From the NCBI RefSeq assembly GCF_054482595.1, contig NZ_CM137008.1: a DNA stretch of 64,000 bases. One strand, 5' to 3'. Position 1 is the stretch's first letter; each line of letters begins with the position of its first letter. The position numbers and the translations under genes were made by a program. Positions 1-51,077 of the stretch are shown in pieces. The notes below the pieces were generated by a model. That model saw only the letters and a list, made by a program, of their open reading frames with translations. It was not told the origin of the DNA and ran no database searches.

Positions 1-9
1 CAGTTCTCA

Positions 10-210
10 ATGGCGAATAGAATTGGCGCAAGAAATCTTTTTATGTCCAGCTCAGAGTCTAACCCCCTTGATATGACCTATGCCGGAATCAGTAATACAA
101 GTGCTCCAGGATTTACCATTGGACAACTTAGTATTATGCCAATGTTAGGTATGACCCTTCCTGGGGAAAATGGCTGGCCATACGGCGATCAAATACTCCA
201 TAATGATTAG
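10..210 (+). CDS. Possible 3' portion of an unknown b-region CDS that may start before the window
   Basis: ORF of 66 aa beginning 9 nt from window edge; no recognisable motif. Confidence 0.2.
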   Translation: MANRIGARNLFMSSSESNPLDMTYAGISNTSAPGFTIGQLSIMPMLGMTLPGENGWPYGDQILHND

Positions 211-372
211 AAGGTTAAGTATTTTATATTGGATATATGGCTATTGTGCTGCCATGATTCTAACAAATTATGCTTAAGAGGTGGTGCAACTCCTCTCATA
301 CAAAAAATACGTAAAATCAGTAACGGCTGGAAATAATTCAATACATACACTCTCGAAAGTGCATCAGCCAAC

Positions 373-403
373 CGCAGCACGTCTTGCATACGGCGTGTCT
401 GCG
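373..403. terminator. Imperfect inverted repeat (hairpin) upstream of the 419-aa orphan gene
   Basis: ccgcagcacg ... cgtgtctgcgg read in sequence; related to the hairpin at 1957..1990. Confidence 0.4.
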
Positions 404-617
404 GCTCTACCATATCTCCTATGAGCAACGTGTTAGCAGAGCCAAGCCACAACTCTAATTTTAATACATAATGAATGATAATAATATTAAAAATTTTCTG
501 TGTAACTAATTTACTATATGGTTTCTGATAAGAATCATTGCAAAGATTAAACAACTTGTATTACATTGACAGTTAAGCAGTTAATTTTATCACCTCTAAA
601 ATATATCAGCATCTAGC

Positions 618-1877
618 ATGCAACCTATCAAAATGGAGATTTTTATGACTAAAAAACCATGGGAAAGAAGACTTAAAGATTTATCGCACTTGCTCAAATG
701 CTGCATTGATACATATTTTGACCCTGAATTATTCCGCTTGAATTTGAATCAATTCCTCCAAACTGCAAGAACAGTAACATTTATTATTCAAAAAAACAAA
801 AACCAGATTATAGGATATGACATTTGGTATAACAATAATGTTATTGAAAAATGGAAAAATGATCCATTAATGGCTTGGGCTAAAAATTCTCGCAATACGA
901 TAGAAAAACAAGGCGATTTAGAAATGTATAGCGAGGCAAAGGCTACTCTTATTTCATCTTACATTGAAGAAAATGACATTGAGTTTATTACAAATGAAAG
1001 TATGTTAAACATTGGTATAAAAAAGTTAGTCAGACTTGCACAAAAGAAATTACCTTCATATTTAACTGAATCATCTATTATTAAATCAGAAAGACGATGG
1101 GTCGCTAATACGCTAAAAGATTACGAATTATTGCATGCCTTAGCTATAATCTATGGCAGAATGTATAACTGCTGTAACTCTCTTGGCATACAAATAAACA
1201 ATCCAATGGGTGACGATGTGATTTCGCCAACATCATTCGACTCTTTATTTGATGAAGCCAGGAGAATAACTTATTTAAAATTAAAAGATTACTCCATAAG
1301 CAAATTGTCATTTAGCATGATACAATATGATAATAAAATAATTCCTGAAGATATTAAAGAGCGTCTAAAACTGGTAGATAAGCCTAAAAATATCACTTCG
1401 ACAGAAGAGTTAGTTGACTATACAGCCAAGCTTGCAGAAACGACTTTTTTAAAGGACGGTTATCACATTCAAACATTAATTTTTTATGATAAACAATTCC
1501 ATCCAATTGATTTAATCAATACAACATTTGAAGATCAAGCAGATAAATATATTTTTTGGCGTTATGCAGCTGACAGAGCCAAAATAATAAATGCCTATGG
1601 CTTCATTTGGATATCAGAGCTATGGCTCAGAAAAGCAAGCATCAACTCCAATAAACCAATACATACAATGCCAATTATAGATGAAAGACTTCAGGTAATT
1701 GGAATTGATTCAAATAATAATCAAAAATGTATTTCATGGAAAATAGTTAGAGAAAACAAAGAAAAAAAACCGACTTTAGAAATATCAACAGCAGACTCAA
1801 AACATGACGGAAAACCATATTTCATGCGTTCAGTCTTAAAAGCAATTGGCGGTGATGTAAACACTATGAACAATTGA
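618..1877 (+). CDS. Hypothetical protein, 419 aa, AT-rich b-region cargo (moron); no recognisable domain
   Basis: Long uninterrupted ORF with ATG start; markedly AT-rich codon usage unlike neighbouring tail genes; convergent with tfa. Confidence 0.7.
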   Translation: MQPIKMEIFMTKKPWERRLKDLSHLLKCCIDTYFDPELFRLNLNQFLQTARTVTFIIQKNKNQIIGYDIWYNNNVIEKWKNDPLMAWAKNSRNTIEKQGDLEMYSEAKATLISSYIEENDIEFITNESMLNIGIKKLVRLAQKKLPSYLTESSIIKSERRWVANTLKDYELLHALAIIYGRMYNCCNSLGIQINNPMGDDVISPTSFDSLFDEARRITYLKLKDYSISKLSFSMIQYDNKIIPEDIKERLKLVDKPKNITSTEELVDYTAKLAETTFLKDGYHIQTLIFYDKQFHPIDLINTTFEDQADKYIFWRYAADRAKIINAYGFIWISELWLRKASINSNKPIHTMPIIDERLQVIGIDSNNNQKCISWKIVRENKEKKPTLEISTADSKHDGKPYFMRSVLKAIGGDVNTMNN

Positions 1878-1956
1878 GTCATAGAACTTCCATTATTCTC
1901 CTGAAGATAATAATCGCCAAATAAACCAATACTCAGCTTTACAATATACTAACTAA

Positions 1957-1990
1957 CCGCAGAACGTTATTTCATACAACGTTTCTGCGG
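1957..1990. terminator. Hairpin between convergent 419-aa gene and tfa (likely bidirectional terminator)
   Basis: ccgcagaacgtt ... aacgtttctgcgg inverted repeat in the 128-bp intergenic gap. Confidence 0.5.
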
Positions 1991-2005
1991 CATATCACAA
2001 AACTA

Positions 2006-2590
2006 TTATTCCATAACAGGGATTGCAGGCCACTCAATATCAGGTGCTACTGATGTATCAACTCGGTTCAGCAATACCCGATATGTCTTCCATGCCGCCA
2101 GTAACAATATCTCCTCCTCCGTCGCAATATCCAAATCTACCGCATCCTGAAGCGGCGCAATATGCTCACTGGCTACCCGCATGAGGCTGTTTTTTGTTTC
2201 TTCCGCCTCCCGTATACGAAACTGTTTTTCTGCTTCTGCATCTTTCACCCAGGTTGTGCCGTTCCACTTCTGATATTCCCCATCCGGCGACAACCAGGTG
2301 ACATTTTCCGGTAATGAGCCGAGTTCAGAAATAAATAACGCGTCCCCTGATGCCACGTCATAAACTGTTTTACCCCGATGGTCTTCAACAAGATGCCACG
2401 ATGCCTCATCACTGTTGAAAACAGCCACGAAGCCAGCCGGAATATCTGGCGGTGCAATATCGGTACTGTTTGCTGGCAGACCTGTATGAGGCGGAATGTA
2501 TGCGTCACCTTCACCAATAAATTCATTAGTTCCGGCCAGCAGATTATAAATTGTTATGGTCCGTGGTTGTTCACTCATTCTGAATGCCAT
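2006..2590 (-). CDS. tfa: Tail fibre assembly protein Tfa (194 aa)
   Basis: 194-aa ORF directly downstream of stf with 1-nt overlap; length and sequence match remembered lambda orf-194. Confidence 0.85.
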
Positions 2591-5500
2591 TATGCAAGCC
2601 TCACAATATAGTTAAATGCGATGTTTTTGACGGTGTTTTCCGCGTTACCAGCAGCGTTAACGGTGATGGTGTGTCCGTGTGAGCCAATCGCAACGGAGTG
2701 CGTATGAGCACCAATACCGACAGTATGCGCGTGTGCACCTGCACTTGCAGCAGTACCTGACACCGGGTGGGTATGCGCTCCGGCTGACGATGTGCCAGTA
2801 CTCGAGCCTGCACGAGACGCACCTTTGAGGGCTTTATCGCCCTGCTCGGTATTGCCAGATGGGTAACAGGCAACCGTGTGTGTATGTGCCCCTGCAGAAG
2901 CAGCCGTACCACTGACACTATGGGTGTGCGCTCCGGTGTTATTCGTGGATTTAGTGCCGTAATCAAACGACGATGTGGTTTTCGTCCCCAAATCCGTACT
3001 GGATGCACTGGCACTGTGGGTATGCGATTTAATGCCGTCCTGTTCCTGAGATAATACGGCACGACCACTGGCGGGCTTGCCCTTAATCGTCCAGCCACGC
3101 ATATCAGGGATCACGCCTGACGGATAAGCGGCTGCAAGTTTCGGGTAGGCAGATTTGTCAAAAGTCTGCCCCTGCATCAGGGCATAGCCAGACGGAACGG
3201 TATCTGATGGCCACGGGATTGGTGCACCGACTGGATAAAACTCTGCAGGAGGATGAGCCGAGGTGTAAAGCTGCGCCCACGGCGACCAGTTTGCGTCGGT
3301 CGTATCCCGTCGTGAACGAATAAATGCCGGAGCATGAGCACCGCTTGTACCACCCCAGCCGATGAGTAACTCACCTTCGCCAACGGCTGTCATCCCTTTC
3401 AGGTGAATGATATTTCCATACGCTGTTGGATATCCGTTGTTATACACCTCGTATAACTCAAGACCTGTTGCCCCCTGCGTATTGTCTGTCAGCGCGGTTA
3501 CCCGACCTTTTGAAGCCAGATTAACTGATGATACTGCTGTTCCACCTGACGGTAACGCCCCGATCTCTGATGCCGTTGGCTTATTTCTGGAGTTATAGTC
3601 CCTTCGCCAGCCAGGTGAATAATATGTTCCGTGATTAATATAGGTAAACTGGGCGTTAGTTGTTCCACCACCAGTGGAGGTGGTCGGTGTGGTAATGCGG
3701 ATCGTCATCGCTGACTTTATCCCCATTACTTCAATGACAGCTCCGGCGAGATGAATATTACCGCAGTCAGTATCAGTAATGATTTTATTATTGCCATAAG
3801 ACCAGGAACCCTTGCACATCCAGTATGGATGGTTAAATGCTCCCTGAGAATCCAGCCACTCGATAAACTGTGCAGTCGTCCAGTTTCCTGTTGTTGTGCT
3901 TACTGACCCACCGAAGGCACGGCAGGCACCAATATTTTTCGTAAAGGTATCTTTGCCAGGGATATCCGCACCGTTCTGATCTTTCTGCAGACGTTTCTCA
4001 GCATTGTCATTGGCTGCTTTTACTGCCTTTGGCGTTGCCGCCAGCGTTTCAGACGTGCTGTTGGTCGCGCTGCTTAACTGGATTATCCCTTTCTGTGCTG
4101 TCGTTGCATCCTGTGCGGTGTATTTCCCGTTAGCCAGGTCATACGCGGCCTTAACGGCTTTTGGCGTTGCCGCCTGTGACTCGGAAGTGCTGTTGGTCGC
4201 ACTGCTGAGCTGTACTATCCCCTTTTTCGTCGTGCTCGCATCCTCAAGCGCCACGGCGGATGCAATATCCTCTGCACGTTTTGCCGCTGTCTCAGCGCGC
4301 GTTGCTGCAGATTCCGCCGTACTTTTGCTCTGAGCTGCTGCCGTCGCACTACCAGCTGCCTCTGTCGCCTTCGTGGATGCCGTCGTGGCGCTACCCTTCG
4401 CTGCTGACGCCTGTCTGGTCGCCTCATCTTTTGAAGCAGACGCCGATGATGCCGATGACGCTGCCGAACTGGCTGACGATGCGGCAGCCGTTTTTGAGGA
4501 TTCTGCACGGGTTTCCGACGCTTTCGCGTTCGTTTCGGATGTCTTCGCTGCGGAAGCTGACCTCGCTGCTGCGCTGGCCTGTACAGCGGCTTCGCCAGCA
4601 TTCGTTGTGGCTGTTGAAGCAGACGATGCAGCACTTTCTGCCGACTTTCCGGCAGCGGTGGCACTGGCTGAGGCCTGCCCGGCACTTGTTGACGCGGCAC
4701 TGGCAGATGATGCAGCCGCTGTTTTTGAGCCTGCCGCAGCTGAGGCACTCTGTCCCGCTGCCGTTTCAGAAGACCTGGCGTTCGTCTCGGACGTCTTTGC
4801 CGCCTTCGCGGAATTTCCTGCCGCCGTTGCCGAGGAAGCGGCACTACTGGCGCTTGATGATGCGTTCGTTTCTGATGATTTCGCTGCCTCTTTTGAGGCC
4901 GCCGCATCCCGGGCTGAGGTGGCAGCTTCTGACGCCTTTGTGGTCGCGGCGGATGCAGAAGTGGCTGCAGATTTTTGTGACGCTGCCGCATTCGTTTCTG
5001 ACGTTTTCGCCGCACCGGCACTGGTAGCTGCCGCGCTTTTTGAGGACTCTGCAGCAGCAGCACTTTTCGATGCTTCACTGGCCTTTGTTGATGCCGTTCC
5101 TGCGCTGGAAGTCGCTGACTGAGCCGACGAAGCGGCCTGTCCGGCTGACGTGCTGGCTGCACGTGCTGAATCTGCAGCATCAGTCGCATGGGTTGCCGCC
5201 TCACGGGCAGATGTGCTGGCATCACTGGCTGACTTCTTCGCGGCTGCCGTGTTCTGTGCCACCACGGACGCGTTACGCGCCACCTCTTCCACCATCAGTT
5301 CAAAACGTCGCAATGCCTCCGGACGGGCATCATCCTCCGTCATCGCACCGAGAAAATCATTCAGCGTACCGGGTTGGGAATCTTCATACACGGTGATGGT
5401 CCCGGCATGTGACGGCGGGAATCCTTCCACCAACAGAATAACGCTGTACTGACCGTACTCAACGTCCATGCTGTAACGCCCGGCTTCATCCGGATTTTCT

Positions 5501-20917: not shown

Positions 20918-24598
<3,681 letters not shown>

Positions 24599-24624
<26 letters not shown>

Positions 24625-25144
24625 TCAGCAACCCCGGTATCAGTTCATCCAGCGCGGCTGCTTTGTTCATGGCTTTGATGATATCCCGTTTCAGGAAATC
24701 AACATGTCGGTTTTCCAGTTCCGGAAAACGCCGCTGCACCGACAGGGGGATCCCGTCGAGAATACTGGCAATTTCACCTGCGATCCGCGACAGCACGAAA
24801 GTACAGAATGCGGTTTCCACCACTTCAGCGGAGTCTCTGGCATTTTTCAGCTCCTGTGCGTCGGCCTGCGCACGCGTAAGTCGATGGCGTTCGTACTCAA
24901 TAGTCCCTGGCTGGAGATCTGTCTCGCTGGCCTGCCGCAGTTCTTCAACTTCCCGGCGCAGCTTTTCGTTCTCAATTTCAGCATCCCTTTCGGCATACCA
25001 TTTTATGACGGCGGCAGAGTCATAAAGCACCTCATTACCCTTGCCACCGCCTCGCAGAACGGGCATTCCCTGTTCCTGCCAGTTCTGAATGGTACGGATA
25101 CTCGCACCGAAAATGTCAGCCAGCTGCTTTTTGTTGACTTCCAT
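24599..25144 (-). CDS. nu1: Terminase small subunit Nu1
   Basis: 181-aa ORF MEVNKKQLADIFGASIRTIQNWQEQGMP (winged HTH), lambda length. Confidence 0.95.
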
Positions 25145-25345
25145 TGTTCATTCCACGGACAAAAACAGAGAAAGGAAACGACAGAGGCCAAAAAGCTCGC
25201 TTTCAGCACCTGTCGTTTCCTTTCTTTTCAGAGGGTATTTTAAATAAAAACATTAAGTTATGACGAAGAAGAACGGAAACGCCTTAAACCGGAAAATTTT
25301 CATAAATAGCGAAAACCCGCGAGGTCGCCGCCCCGTAACCTGTCG
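25145..25345. other. cos: cos region (cosB next to Nu1, cosN, cosQ side)
   Basis: Reverse complement of remembered lambda left-end sequence read directly; 12-nt cohesive end GGGCGGCGACCT present as aggtcgccgccc at 25322..25333. Confidence 0.85.
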
Positions 25346-25532
25346 GATCGCCGGAAAGGACCCGCAAAATGATAATAATTATCATCTACATGTCACAACG
25401 TGCATCTACGCAATCAAACCACGTCAAATAATCAATTATGACGCAGATATCGTATTAATTGATCTGCATCAACTTAACGTAAAAACAACTTCAGACAATA
25501 CAAATCAGCGACACTGAATACGGGACAACCTC

Positions 25533-25766
25533 ATGTCAACGAAGAACAGAACCCGCAGAACAACAACCCGCAACATCCGCTTTCCTAACCAAATGATTGA
25601 ACAAATTAACATCGCTCTTGATCAAAAAGGGTCCGGGAATTTCTCAGCCTGGGTCATTGAAGCCTGCCGCCGGAGACTGTGCTCAGAAAAAAGAGTTTCT
25701 CCTGAAGCAAACAAAGAAAAGAGTGACATTACTGAATTGCTCAGAAAACAGATCAGACCAGATTGA
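25533..25766 (+). CDS. Small ribbon-helix-helix-like protein (possibly DUF3950-like), cos-proximal cargo
   Basis: 77-aa ORF; motif RNIRFPNQMIEQINIAL resembles RHH beta-strand/helix; opposite strand to late genes. Confidence 0.5.
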   Translation: MSTKNRTRRTTTRNIRFPNQMIEQINIALDQKGSGNFSAWVIEACRRRLCSEKRVSPEANKEKSDITELLRKQIRPD

Positions 25767-25807
25767 AGCAATTTAGATAATCGTGCAGACTACGCCCCTC
25801 ATATCAC

Positions 25808-26233
25808 ATGGAAGGTACTACAATGGCTCAGGTTGCCATTTTTAAACAAATATTCGATAAAGTGCGAAATAATTTAAACTATCACTGGTTTTATTCTGAA
25901 CTAAAACGTCACAATGTCTCACATTACATTTACTATTTAGCTACAGAGAATATTCATCTTGTTCTTGAAAACGATAATACGGTTTTAATAAAAGGACAGG
26001 GTAAGGTTGTAAATGTAAGATTTTCAAAAAATAAATGCCTTATAGAAGCCACCTTAAAAGGATTCAAATCAGGAGAGTTATCATTTTACGAATACAGGAA
26101 AAATCTTGCTACAGCAGGGGTTTTCAGATGGATTACAAATATCCACGAAAACAAAAGGTATTACTATACCTTTGATAATTCATTACTCTTTACTGAGAAC
26201 ATTCAGAACACTACACAAATATTTCCGCACTAA
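25808..26233 (+). CDS. Hypothetical protein, possibly DUF1398/YbcV-like, cos-proximal cargo
   Basis: 141-aa AT-rich ORF; family assignment from memory only, unverified. Confidence 0.5.
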
Positions 26234-26724
26234 ATCATAACGTCCGGTTTCTTCCGTGCCAGAACCGGACTCGCTGGCATGATGAAATATGTGTACCCGG
26301 TAACCCCGGTGTGCATCGTTTTTGATTATTCCCGCACACTCGCGCAGAAGGAGTTCCCCGTCGGGCTACGGTCTCTGTTAATACGGGAATACGGCGACGA
26401 TACAGCGCATGATGTGTCAGGCTTGAATACCTTTATCCTTTAAAAGGGATATCAGTTAAGTTATCCCGTGTAGGGTATAAACCATTATCAAAGCCACTCT
26501 GTAGGAAGTGGCTTTTGTAATGGCAATAAAAAGCCCCGCGAATGCGAGGCTAAATCCTGGTATTTGTAATGACTGGCTCTTATCTCAACGCAGCCCCTTA
26601 CCGCGCGCAAAATGCTCAATATCAAGCATCAGCAATGAGATGTTTAATCTGGATTCACTCCAGAAGTGAGCACCACCCTGTCTACAGAGCCAGATGTGAA
26701 GGATGATGAGTAAAATTATCGCTA

Positions 26725-38907: not shown

Positions 38908-38979
38908 GCGCGGCGTTACCGCATACCAATAACGCTTCACTCGAGGCGTTTTTCGTTATGTATAAATAAGGAGCACACC

Positions 38980-39144
38980 ATGCAATATGCCATTGCAGGG
39001 TGGCCTGTTGCTGGCTGCCCTTCCGAATCTTTACTTGAACGAATCACCCGTAAATTACGTGACGGATGGAAACGCCTTATCGACATACTTAATCAGCCAG
39101 GAGTCCCAAAAAATGGATCAAACACTTATGGCTATCCAGACTAA
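38980..39144 (+). CDS. cIII: CIII (54 aa; below ORF-track threshold)
   Basis: Manual translation [54 protein letters not shown]. Confidence 0.9.
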   Translation: MQYAIAGWPVAGCPSESLLERITRKLRDGWKRLIDILNQPGVPKNGSNTYGYPD

Positions 39145-50406: not shown

Positions 50407-50641
50407 GGTCAGTGCGTATTTGCAGCGCGACGTTATCAAAGGTGATCATCGTCGATTTACAAAAAATACACTTAGCGCCCAAAGGGTTTCGCTCCGTCAC
50501 ATCGAATGCCGATGTGCGGTACTGTGAACCATGACAACATGGACAGCGGAAATGGAGATGTTGAGTAATAACGGCAACCTTAGAGCGTAACAACGTTCGC
50601 TGCCGCGGGGCCACGTTGCCCCTGCTCAATAGAAAATTCAA
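50381..50641 (-). CDS. Small Cys-rich ORF overlapping cspG 3' end (possibly ymcF-like; may be spurious)
   Basis: 86-aa ORF with CPCCH ... CIFC; overlaps cspG by about 60 nt in another frame. Confidence 0.25.
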
Positions 50642-50792
50642 CTTTCTGATTTTCGTTCAGCGTGCGGAATTCATTGCTCTGGATGGCGGTGAAATGGACG
50701 AAAACGTCTTTGCTGCCATCATCAGGAGTGATAAAGCCAAAACCTTTATCTGCGTTAAACCATTTTACTAAACCAGTCATTTTATTAGACAT
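50580..50792 (-). CDS. cspG: Cold shock protein CspG
   Basis: 70-aa [26 protein letters not shown]; S1-like cold shock domain. Confidence 0.95.
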
Positions 50793-51077
50793 ATTTTACT
50801 TCCTTCATTTTGGGCCTTTCGGCAAACAGGGCTTTAATACAGAAACTACTTAGTGTTCAGGAGAGAGACTCAAAAGAAGGGGATAATGCCTGATAATGAG
50901 AACTGCTTTAGTAAACTACTTTGTATGCTGTCTGTCTTTCCAACCGACGCAGCTATTAACGCATGATAATTGAGATTAAGCAAATTTTATTTTAGCCGTC
51001 CGGCGGTCTTAAATATCGCTGGCTTTATTTTATTAACCCCGTATAGTGCAGCGCAGTATTTTCAGTAAGGAATTTGT

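Follow-up and report, generated by a model that had tools for sequence, protein, structure and literature searches.

A ynfO-ydfO cassette and a mosaic spacer between cos and Rz: very probably the usual accessory DNA at the right end of lambda-family prophages

Our analysis indicates that the DNA between cos and Rz in the window (the whole stretch analysed, 64,000 nucleotides of contig NZ_CM137008.1) is very probably the accessory segment that lambda-family prophages normally carry at their right end, and not a new module. The two genes found there, ynfO and ydfO, are orthologues of ynfO-ydfO of the Qin prophage of K-12, of ylcI and ybcV of DLP12 and of the right-end ORFs of lambda. Both genes and a 50-aa ORF next to Rz are already in the RefSeq annotation, are common in E. 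coli and are not new; as a discovery the locus has little significance, the genes being found in a substantial fraction of E. coli genomes as well as in lambda.

Both genes are read against the Q-S-R-Rz...Nu1-A late operon (Table 1), whose Nu1 (24599-25144) and terminase A genes lie on the minus strand directly downstream of cosN. Between ynfO and cosN there are 200 bp, and between ynfO and Nu1 389 bp; the DUF1398 gene follows on the same plus strand after 41 nt, and its GC content is 31% against about 50% in the flanks. The first-pass annotation had described two plus-strand ORFs opposing the late operon between cos and Rz, which the gene coordinates and the exact cosN bear out, and its view of them as a non-essential cargo pair on the strand opposite to that operon is supported as well. 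It had placed the pair in the slot where lambda carries bor; bor is indeed present in lambda, but lambda also has homologues of both ORFs. Behind the pair it had seen about 490 bp of non-coding DNA. The ORF list of the window indeed holds no ORF of at least 60 aa in 26234-26724, but the stretch does contain an annotated gene, a 50-aa RefSeq CDS on the minus strand at 26585..26737.

Table 1. Features between cos and Rz (positions in the window)
Feature	Position	Strand	Remarks
cosN, lambda 12-nt cohesive-end site	25322..25333	-	exact match to GGGCGGCGACCT
Inverted repeat ATCAATTATGACG / CGTATTAATTGAT	25431..25463		13-nt arms, 85% complementary, 7 nt apart
ynfO/ylcI-family gene	25533..25766	+	77 aa
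ydfO/ybcV-family gene (DUF1398)	25808..26233	+	141 aa; PGAP start 25823 (136 aa)
Segment homologous to the ybcV-bor / iss-upstream intergenic DNA, without bor	26234..26409		
Hairpin GTCCGGTT-N13-AACCGGAC	26242..26270	+	just past the ydfO stop; no U-run
54-aa frame	26279..26443	+	ATG start; judged not a gene
3'-terminal remnant of a Rha-family regulator gene	26417..26437	-	21 nt; ends ...DKGIQA*
Inverted-repeat cluster, TATCC(C/T)/GGGATA half-sites	26432..26481		I1: 20-nt arms, 75% complementary
Predicted intrinsic terminator, GCCACT/AGTGGC + UUUUGU	26482..26523; core 26493-26518	+	for the ynfO-ydfO transcript
Predicted intrinsic terminator, AGCCUCGC-AUUC-GCGGGGCU + UUUUAUU	26522..26551; hairpin 26551-26532	-	late-operon strand
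50-aa ORF	26585..26737	-	PGAP CDS WP_001139678.1; 47 aa from second Met
Rz spanin, final lysis gene of the late operon	26725..27204	-	annotated 'lysis protein'
Rz1	26766-26972		embedded in Rz

E. coli EC5502 carries the whole region with 100% identity, and PGAP annotates it there with a YlcI/YnfO protein, a DUF1398 protein, a hypothetical 50-aa protein and the lysis protein; of 5426 complete genomes, 1001 contain 80% or more of the 1611 bp. Both proteins are encoded by lambda itself (NC_001416; tblastn or megablast), the same gene order is seen in DLP12 and HK629/lambda, and the position beside cos and the small-terminase gene on the opposite strand recurs in DLP12 and many other loci. In Qin of K-12 both families are likewise found beside a small-terminase gene (nohA), with order and orientation unchanged; the Qin YnfO has 77 aa, as here, and PGAP names the window gene ynfO. 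Downstream of ydfO the two prophages differ: Qin has other cargo, gnsB (PMC7660256), whereas the window has the bor-less spacer, the predicted terminators and the 50-aa ORF. The right end of DLP12/lambda is arranged as nohD(Nu1)-ylcI-ybcW-ybcV(lambdap78)-bor-Rz. It is homologous to the window from Nu1 through cos to the YlcI N-terminus at 97-99% DNA identity; for the DUF1398 gene and its 3' flank the figure is 83%, and the homology reaches window position 26409; the window, in contrast, has neither ybcW, nor bor, nor the bor-proximal upstream region, and its YlcI has another C-terminal tail. The lambda bor/plasmid iss moron occupies the same slot and likewise opposes the late operon; the window retains the distal upstream segment common to both, without the bor or iss coding sequence. 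As for expression in K-12, ybcW-ylcI is a convergent transcript overlap in RNA-seq data (PMC12288877), and PdhR sites are reported at ybcV/ybcW and ynfO/ydfO (PMC7660256).

The second protein had been called DUF1398-like, and this is confirmed: YdfO matches Pfam DUF1398 (PF07166) over model positions 1-119 of 119 with an E-value of 3.9e-43, aligns over its full length to PDB 2HH8, the solved structure of YdfO (E 1.4e-69), and has the fold of a duplicated alpha2-beta3 unit. The domain searches proposed for both proteins assign them to the YlcI/YnfO family (DUF3950) and the YdfO/YbcV family (DUF1398). The label 'head protein', attached to DUF1398 by phrog_413, was not adopted, because the direction of the gene opposes that of the late operon and CRISPRi showed lambdap78 to be non-essential (PMC10695390). 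Induction of ydfO by an ionic liquid reached 116-fold (PMC4077768). YdfO may act as a non-toxic, stress-induced cytoplasmic factor of host fitness.

YnfO covers all 30 model positions of Pfam PF13132 (DUF3950) with an E-value of 9.8e-21 and scores 35.7 bits against NCBIfam NF041551, above the curated cut-off of 30; PGAP names the 77-aa product 'YlcI/YnfO family protein' (WP_001663509.1). Its N-terminal 50 aa are almost invariant and its C-terminal tail is variable and mosaic, with a recombination breakpoint at 25695. Compared with a diverged allele, five codon changes are synonymous and one is non-synonymous, and the gene by all indications encodes a real protein under purifying selection. The earlier label RHH-like is reasonable from the N-terminal pattern, but every test of RHH membership was non-significant. 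The N-terminal 50 aa can be read as a basic arm, an N-I-R-F-P strand, a helix, a G-S-G-N turn and a second helix, and RHH repressors and antitoxins (Arc, Mnt, CopG, RelB, MazE6-type) likewise have a basic arm, a strand, a helix, a G-x-S/N turn and a helix, the strand of Arc being NLRWP where YnfO has NIRFP. With hhalign the YnfO pattern fell in the Arc register, at P=0.03 only, and no significant score was obtained against Arc, RelB and CopG. PDB sequence and profile searches with YnfO gave no significant RHH match, and PHROG returned a weak match to HicB-like antitoxins (E 0.007). In the AF2 monomer model residues 19-32 and 37-54 form helices, two of the right length for RHH proteins, and the putative strand at 13-18 is modelled as coil with a pLDDT of 69. 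In contrast to RHH proteins, YnfO has neither a significant sequence or fold score nor a cognate toxin. From the pattern and the model together, the RHH-likeness of YnfO appears plausible, and most likely YnfO would bind DNA as an RHH-type dimer and autoregulate the cassette. Its operator is possibly the inverted repeat at 25431-25463, a candidate lying about 70-100 bp upstream of ynfO; a scan of the plus strand upstream of ynfO found no sigma-70 consensus promoter.

It could be argued that ynfO and ydfO form a toxin-antitoxin-like or otherwise obligate pair, in which the RHH protein YnfO neutralises YdfO and autoregulates, as had been proposed at first: a small basic RHH-like protein is encoded upstream of a small partner, only 41 nt separate the two genes, which share a strand, and the HicB-like PHROG match, though weak, would fit. 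However, the genes are not obligately linked. The YlcI N-domain occurs in 152 phage records (66 of them Stx-converting phages) against 43 for DUF1398, three loci (L007, L138 and L139) have YlcI without DUF1398, and in DLP12 and lambda the opposite-strand ybcW splits the two genes. DUF1398 also stands alone in chromosomal loci, in one beside bluR/bluF, in another beside a Trans_reg_C regulator and in a further one elsewhere, and it is widespread in Bacteroidota, which counts against such a pairing. YdfO has no match to a toxin family in Pfam, and a PADLOC-DB v2 search with YnfO, YdfO, the 54-aa frame and the 50-aa ORF gave nothing significant, the only listed match being Csx23 (E 0.025). According to earlier work, as far as PMC4077768 summarises it, overexpression of YdfO leads to higher oxidative-stress resistance and is thus beneficial, not toxic. 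Of the properties of a type II toxin-antitoxin system, neither strict co-occurrence nor a toxin-family or toxic partner was found. The toxin-antitoxin or defence idea is therefore disfavoured for what is one of the most common uncharacterised prophage pairs, belonging to the K-12 'y-ome' (ynfO, ydfO), and in our judgement a toxin-antitoxin-like or obligate pair is very unlikely.

Alternatively, YlcI/YnfO could be tied to DNA packaging, or to the control of late read-through at the junction of lysis and packaging, and would then not be cargo. It always adjoins the start of the packaging module, be it of the Nu1 type, of another small-terminase type or of the HNH/terS type; cos, Nu1 and roughly the first 54 ynfO codons are exchanged as one recombination block; and the near invariance of the N-terminal 50 aa would be in line with such a role. 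On the other hand, the direction of ynfO opposes the late operon, prophages with a DUF1441-type small terminase have no YlcI/YnfO and the cos subsites of lambda are not known to need it. Moreover, the YlcI gene is transcribed in the cryptic DLP12 prophage, which does not package (PMC12288877). Thus a packaging role is quite improbable, and we keep to the reading of ynfO as accessory cargo.

Comparison with relatives shows that, as judged from DNA homology, the spacer at 26234-26724 is not one unit but a mosaic that modular recombination has produced. It is built of four parts: the bor-less ybcV-bor/iss segment, a Rha stump, the convergent predicted terminators and the 50-aa ORF. The first part is 82-84% identical to HK629/lambda-type and DLP12 sequence and 86% identical to the iss-upstream region of a ColV-type plasmid; the homology to bor-bearing phages ends at 26409, where bor's own upstream region starts in those phages. 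No Bor was found by tblastn in the loci identical to the window, and the segment does not qualify as a bor/iss moron. Where HK629 has annotated promoter hexamers (TGGACA...TACAAT), the window has CGGTCT...TACGGC. A short RNA driven by the bor promoter was considered and dropped, because the hexamers are degenerate in the window and the AT-rich proximal part of the bor upstream region is missing. The Rha stump reads KDKGIQA*, the intact Rha of L007 ends in FDKGIQA*, and the homology breaks at 26437/26438. The breakpoints at 25695, 26409, 26524-26525 and 26945/26963 recur (131 loci), and the one at 26524-26525 is met again in viral loci with other cargo, for example a phrog_4284 ORF. In a sibling prophage (L006) a 670-bp Rha cassette lies exactly between window positions 26525 and 26526, and across loci the slot contains Bor, Rha, the 50-aa ORF or other ORFs; judging from these arrangements, the terminator junction at 26525/26526 is a point of cargo insertion. 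What had been taken for a hairpin-rich non-coding stretch is thus better described as a recombination patchwork, in which the convergent putative terminators mark the junction where cargo is inserted.

The three hairpins listed in the first-pass annotation are all present, at slightly different coordinates. For the first one (26242-26270, dG -13.4, z -1.5) 17 of 200 shuffles were as stable, and on energy alone it is therefore not beyond chance; relatives retain its stem, once by way of a compensatory change (GTCCTG/CAGGAC in L009), and lambda has lost part of it. The other two consist of a GC-rich stem-loop with a U-run directly behind it and are thus predicted to be intrinsic (Rho-independent) terminators. 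The plus-strand element, with 17-nt arms that are 88% complementary, has a dG of -12.9 and a z of -2.5 (4 of 200 shuffles as stable), and the minus-strand element, which was also found by a terminator scan, has a dG of -15.2 and a z of -3.1 (0 of 200).

We infer the use of these terminators, a promoter of the cassette and the following read-through model. In the lysogen the plus-strand cassette would be transcribed on its own and its transcript would end at 26482-26523, and therefore no antisense RNA would run into Rz, R and S; the minus-strand terminator would halt stray transcription arriving from the lysis side. Upon induction, Q-modified RNA polymerase would pass the minus-strand terminator and continue through ydfO, ynfO and cos to Nu1 and A. 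Such late read-through would silence ynfO-ydfO via convergent transcription.

A hidden small RNA had also been suspected in the stretch, and 26234-26525 could be a functional RNA, either a small RNA, derived from the 3'-UTR or independent, that ends at 26482-26523, or a portable cis-regulatory leader serving the downstream cargo, be it bor, iss or another gene. The 3' end of this segment has a good putative terminator, 26400-26530 folds with a z of -3.3, the stem of the first hairpin is saved by its compensatory change, 4773 of the 5426 genomes have matches to parts of it, and the core 26302-26409 is kept upstream of bor and iss as well as in prophages without ydfO. However, the Rfam search of the whole window at the gathering threshold gave nothing relevant in the stretch, and for 24000-30000 the covariance models of Rfam 15 yielded nothing at that threshold, the best match being the sub-threshold STnc560 (20.5 bits against a cut-off of 55), which rests on the terminator hairpins; nor were there matches to AgvB or AsxR at E<=1 in this interval. 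The scan found no promoter-like site on the plus strand in 26234-26530, the covariation term of RNAalifold is -0.09 with most pairs never varying, and the repeats at 26432-26481 are nearly invariant among relatives and therefore uninformative on covariation. Furthermore, the conservation of the stretch is about that of the neighbouring DUF1398 coding DNA (82-84%) and no higher, and it is built from separately exchanged pieces. The known prophage RNAs AgvB, AsxR and PasA-D are short RNAs at lambdoid moron sites, often in convergent pairs with terminators (PMC4104026), but they map to other sites. PasB lies among structural genes, whereas the region from Q/PR' to the lysis genes contains AgvB, AsxR and most of the Pas genes; none is reported between Rz and cos (PMC4104026; bioRxiv 10.64898/2026.05.13.724894). 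A functional RNA is thus unlikely.

Two observations tell against our explanation of the locus: in prophages without either gene 26242-26590 is kept at about 91% identity, a persistence for which pure hitch-hiking accounts only weakly, and the stem at 26242-26270 is preserved by its one compensatory change. It could be that the core at about 26302-26409 and the stem at 26242-26270 form a portable cis-regulatory leader or a processed RNA, or that YlcI gates convergent transcription at the lysis/packaging junction, both of which we hold to be improbable. If true, a portable core would travel with any cargo between Rz and cos (bor, iss, Rha or none) and would therefore explain the persistence in prophages and ColV plasmids that have neither ynfO nor ydfO.

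A hidden 54-aa protein had been suggested for the plus strand; the frame has an ATG start and 54 open codons and is intact in 63 close loci, but 12 of its 13 variant alleles alter the protein, 11 by amino-acid-changing substitutions only and one (L124) by a 12-nt in-frame deletion plus one substitution, and a single allele is silent. Lambda and DLP12 have ATA in place of the start codon, and their frame is shifted or stopped. PHROG and NCBIfam give no match, RefSeq has no such call, and Kati is the sole phage record with an annotated frame at this site, which makes a real small protein extremely unlikely. The 50-aa ORF on the minus strand overlaps the stop of Rz, the TGA of which shares ATGA with an ATG. 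It matches phrog_11822 (E 1.8e-36) and has 65 protein clusters, nearly all of them from E. coli; the majority of its DNA differences alter an amino acid, and its hydrophobic N-terminus is invariant. Its product may possibly be a small membrane protein.

The interval between Rz and cos singled out by the first-pass annotation is real, but the object is an ordinary one and is already annotated: the locus is a lambdoid ynfO-ydfO accessory cassette followed by a spacer that bears recombination scars and convergent terminators. The prophage in the window is lambda-like, and its late operon is read from the minus strand in the order Q, holin, endolysin, Rz (with Rz1 inside), Nu1 and terminase A. The interval extends from the last lysis gene to cos and corresponds to the right end of lambda-type genomes. 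The two plus-strand ORFs seen at first reading were recovered at 25533-25766 (77 aa) and 25808-26233 (141 aa), the second being AT-rich as described (31% GC against about 50% around it). The following 490 bp (26234-26724) indeed hold no ORF of at least 60 aa and contain the 54-aa frame (26279-26443), but their description as non-coding fails on a 50-aa CDS annotated by RefSeq. Similarly, the interval was said to lie where lambda carries bor; lambda does have bor there, but it also has homologues of the ynfO/ydfO pair.

Features of the interval and its surroundings (window coordinates)
Feature	Coordinates	Strand	Remark
Nu1	24599-25144	minus	terminase A next
Lambda 12-nt cohesive-end sequence (cos)	25322-25333	minus	exact copy
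Inverted repeat	25431-25463		putative; candidate operator
50-aa ORF	26585-26737	minus	part 4 of the spacer
Rz	26725-27204	minus	Rz1 embedded; last lysis gene
Q	28426-29049	minus	late operon

Both proteins belong to described families. The 77-aa protein falls into the YlcI/YnfO family (NCBIfam NF041551, 35.7 bits with a cut-off of 30) and matches Pfam DUF3950 (E 9.8e-21), while the suspected DUF1398 character of the 141-aa protein was borne out by a full-length match (E 3.9e-43) and an end-to-end alignment with E. coli YdfO (E 1.4e-69; PDB 2HH8, NMR structure). In the PGAP annotation the products of the region are named YlcI/YnfO, DUF1398, hypothetical protein (50 aa) and lysis protein. The 1611-bp region is found with 100% identity in the E. 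coli EC5502 chromosome and with 99.9% in phage Kati. Among 5426 complete E. coli genomes, 4908 contain partial matches and 1001 at least 80% of it. The K-12 prophage DLP12 has the order nohD-ylcI-ybcW-ybcV-bor-rzpD, and HK629 and lambda share both its order and its genes; the lambda DUF1398 protein (NC_001416, 47048-47452) is 76% identical to that of the window, and the YlcI domain is also encoded in lambda-family records. DUF1398 is labelled "head protein" in PHROGs (phrog_413) and in RefSeq phage records, the lambda entry among them, while older records call it a "putative envelope protein". Both labels look unfounded, since the gene is transcribed in the opposite direction to the late operon and lambda does not require it (lambdap78 non-essential by CRISPRi; PMC10695390). 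Many YlcI/DUF1398 homologues (P0021-P0119, P0138-P0240) stem from ENA contigs roughly 3.5 kb long, in which protein lengths are erratic, and from records labelled Staphylococcus, Bacillus or spider; these are probably lambda control DNA contaminating the assemblies.

The N-terminal 50 residues of YnfO (MSTKNRTRRTTTRNIRFPNQMIEQINIALDQKGSGNFSAWVIEACRRRL) are nearly invariant and the C-terminal tail is mosaic. Comparison of ynfO with a diverged allele gave five synonymous changes and one non-synonymous change, mostly at third codon positions, which indicates a real protein under purifying selection. By its pattern YnfO appears ribbon-helix-helix-like: a basic arm, NIRFP, a helix, a G-S-G-N turn and a second helix. 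Hhalign placed it in register with the strand and helix A of Arc (NLRWP...) at only P=0.029, and the AF2 monomer model contains both helices without the strand (pLDDT 69).

The suggestion that the two genes form a toxin-antitoxin-like or obligate module is not supported. The YlcI N-domain occurs in 152 phage records and DUF1398 in 43; among Stx-converting phages the numbers are 66 and 0. In DLP12 and lambda ybcW lies between the two genes, and distant DUF1398 proteins are solitary, with bluR/bluF (the situation of K-12 ycgX; PMC3509220), a Trans_reg_C regulator and a formate dehydrogenase cluster as neighbours in one case each. Neither YnfO nor YdfO gave a significant PADLOC match. YdfO overexpression leads to higher oxidative-stress resistance (earlier work cited in PMC4077768), ydfO is induced 116-fold by ionic liquid (PMC4077768) and PdhR binding sites have been reported for ybcV/ybcW and ynfO/ydfO (PMC7660256). 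YlcI without DUF1398 adjoins other small-terminase or HNH-type packaging modules; it follows the lysis/packaging junction and not one terminase type. Two related loci, from E. coli 89-3156 (L138, 630-830) and O111:H8 08-4347 (L139, 1041-1268), have YlcI/YnfO beside an HNH endonuclease/small-terminase start, with DUF1398 absent.

The 490-bp stretch is a four-part mosaic. The first part (26234-26409) shares 82-84% identity with the DNA between ybcV and bor in lambda-type phages and DLP12; the homology stops sharply at 26409, where the others run into the AT-rich bor upstream region and then bor. A ColV-type plasmid also carries the core of this part (26310-26404) upstream of iss, and in the window CGGTCT...TACGGC stands in place of the promoter annotated in HK629 (TGGACA-N15-TACAAT). 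The second part (26417-26437, minus) is a 21-nt stump of a gene for a Rha-family regulator, reduced to its final codons and stop (KDKGIQA*); the intact gene in another prophage ends in FDKGIQA*, and the homology breaks at 26437/26438. The stump shows that this lineage lost a Rha cassette, by deletion or replacement. Dense inverted repeats with TATCC(C/T)/GGGATA half-sites and 20-nt arms (75% complementary), nearly invariant among relatives, occupy 26432-26481 directly upstream of the plus-strand terminator. The third part (26482-26551) holds both terminators back to back, and prophage L006 carries a 670-bp Rha cassette exactly between 26525 and 26526, that is, between them. The breakpoint at 26524-26525 recurs in many viral loci, where other DNA then precedes Rz (a phrog_4284 ORF in L019); over 131 related loci the recurrent breakpoints are 25695 (inside ynfO, near codon 54), 25746, 26409, 26524-26525 and 26945/26963. 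The general architecture is Nu1 (minus), YnfO (plus), optional YbcW (minus), DUF1398 (plus), then Bor (plus), Rha (minus), the 50-aa ORF or other cargo, and Rz (minus). Such modular mosaicism is usual among lambdoid phages, here with terminators bounding a cargo slot.

All three hairpins claimed for the stretch were found. Against dinucleotide shuffles the one at 26242-26270 is unremarkable (z -1.5), and those at 26493-26518 and 26551-26527 are clearly stable (z -2.5 and -3.1); a U-run directly after both stable hairpins identifies them as convergent intrinsic terminators. One could argue that the spacer encodes a small RNA, as prophages with neither ynfO nor ydfO retain 26242-26590 at about 91% identity and a single compensatory change in related locus L009 keeps the 26242-26270 stem. 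However, the Rfam covariance-model search returned nothing at threshold (best STnc560, 20.5 bits against 55, resting on the terminator hairpins), no plus-strand promoter-like site was found in the interval, and the RNAalifold covariation term was -0.09 for 12 aligned diverged copies of 26230-26409. The known prophage small RNAs are encoded elsewhere: AgvB, AsxR and most Pas RNAs in the segment from Q/PR' to the lysis genes, PasB amid structural genes (PMC4104026; bioRxiv 10.64898/2026.05.13.724894). The small RNA is thus unsupported and has a small probability. The 54-aa frame, proposed as a hidden small protein, was rejected on its alleles: 12 of 13 variants among 14 alleles alter the protein, L124 through a substitution combined with an in-frame deletion of 12 nt and the other 11 through substitutions alone, and one is silent. 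Lambda and DLP12 lack its start codon, and there the frame is either shifted or interrupted by a stop. It had no family match.

The 50-aa ORF (47 aa from the second Met) overlaps the Rz stop with its ATG as ATGA. It has an invariant hydrophobic N-terminus, matches phrog_11822, contains no Pfam domain and forms 65 protein clusters, nearly all of them E. coli. Its product may be a small membrane protein co-translated with the lysis genes, but most allele differences in its DNA alter an amino acid.

On the most likely working of the locus, the cassette would be transcribed alone in the lysogen and its transcript would stop at 26482-26523, shielding the lysis genes from antisense transcription, while the minus-strand terminator would stop stray transcription from the lysis side. 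K-12 RNA-seq places ylcI in a convergent transcript overlap (PMC12288877). After induction, Q-modified polymerase would pass the minus-strand terminator and cross the cassette and cos into Nu1/A, and such read-through would switch the cassette off. YnfO probably regulates itself, and YdfO would be a non-toxic, stress-responsive host-fitness factor.

An 85-aa frame (25260-25517, plus) across cos and the ynfO upstream region has no RefSeq annotation; phrog_9395 matches its final 42 residues (E 4e-25), and the frame is probably a spurious prediction passed on through phage records. Elsewhere in the window, Rfam matches above threshold are IS009 (2049-2247, minus, 180.7 bits), the lambda cIII thermoregulator (38967-39025, plus, 88.5 bits) and the cspA thermoregulator (50526-50948, minus, 153.2 bits).
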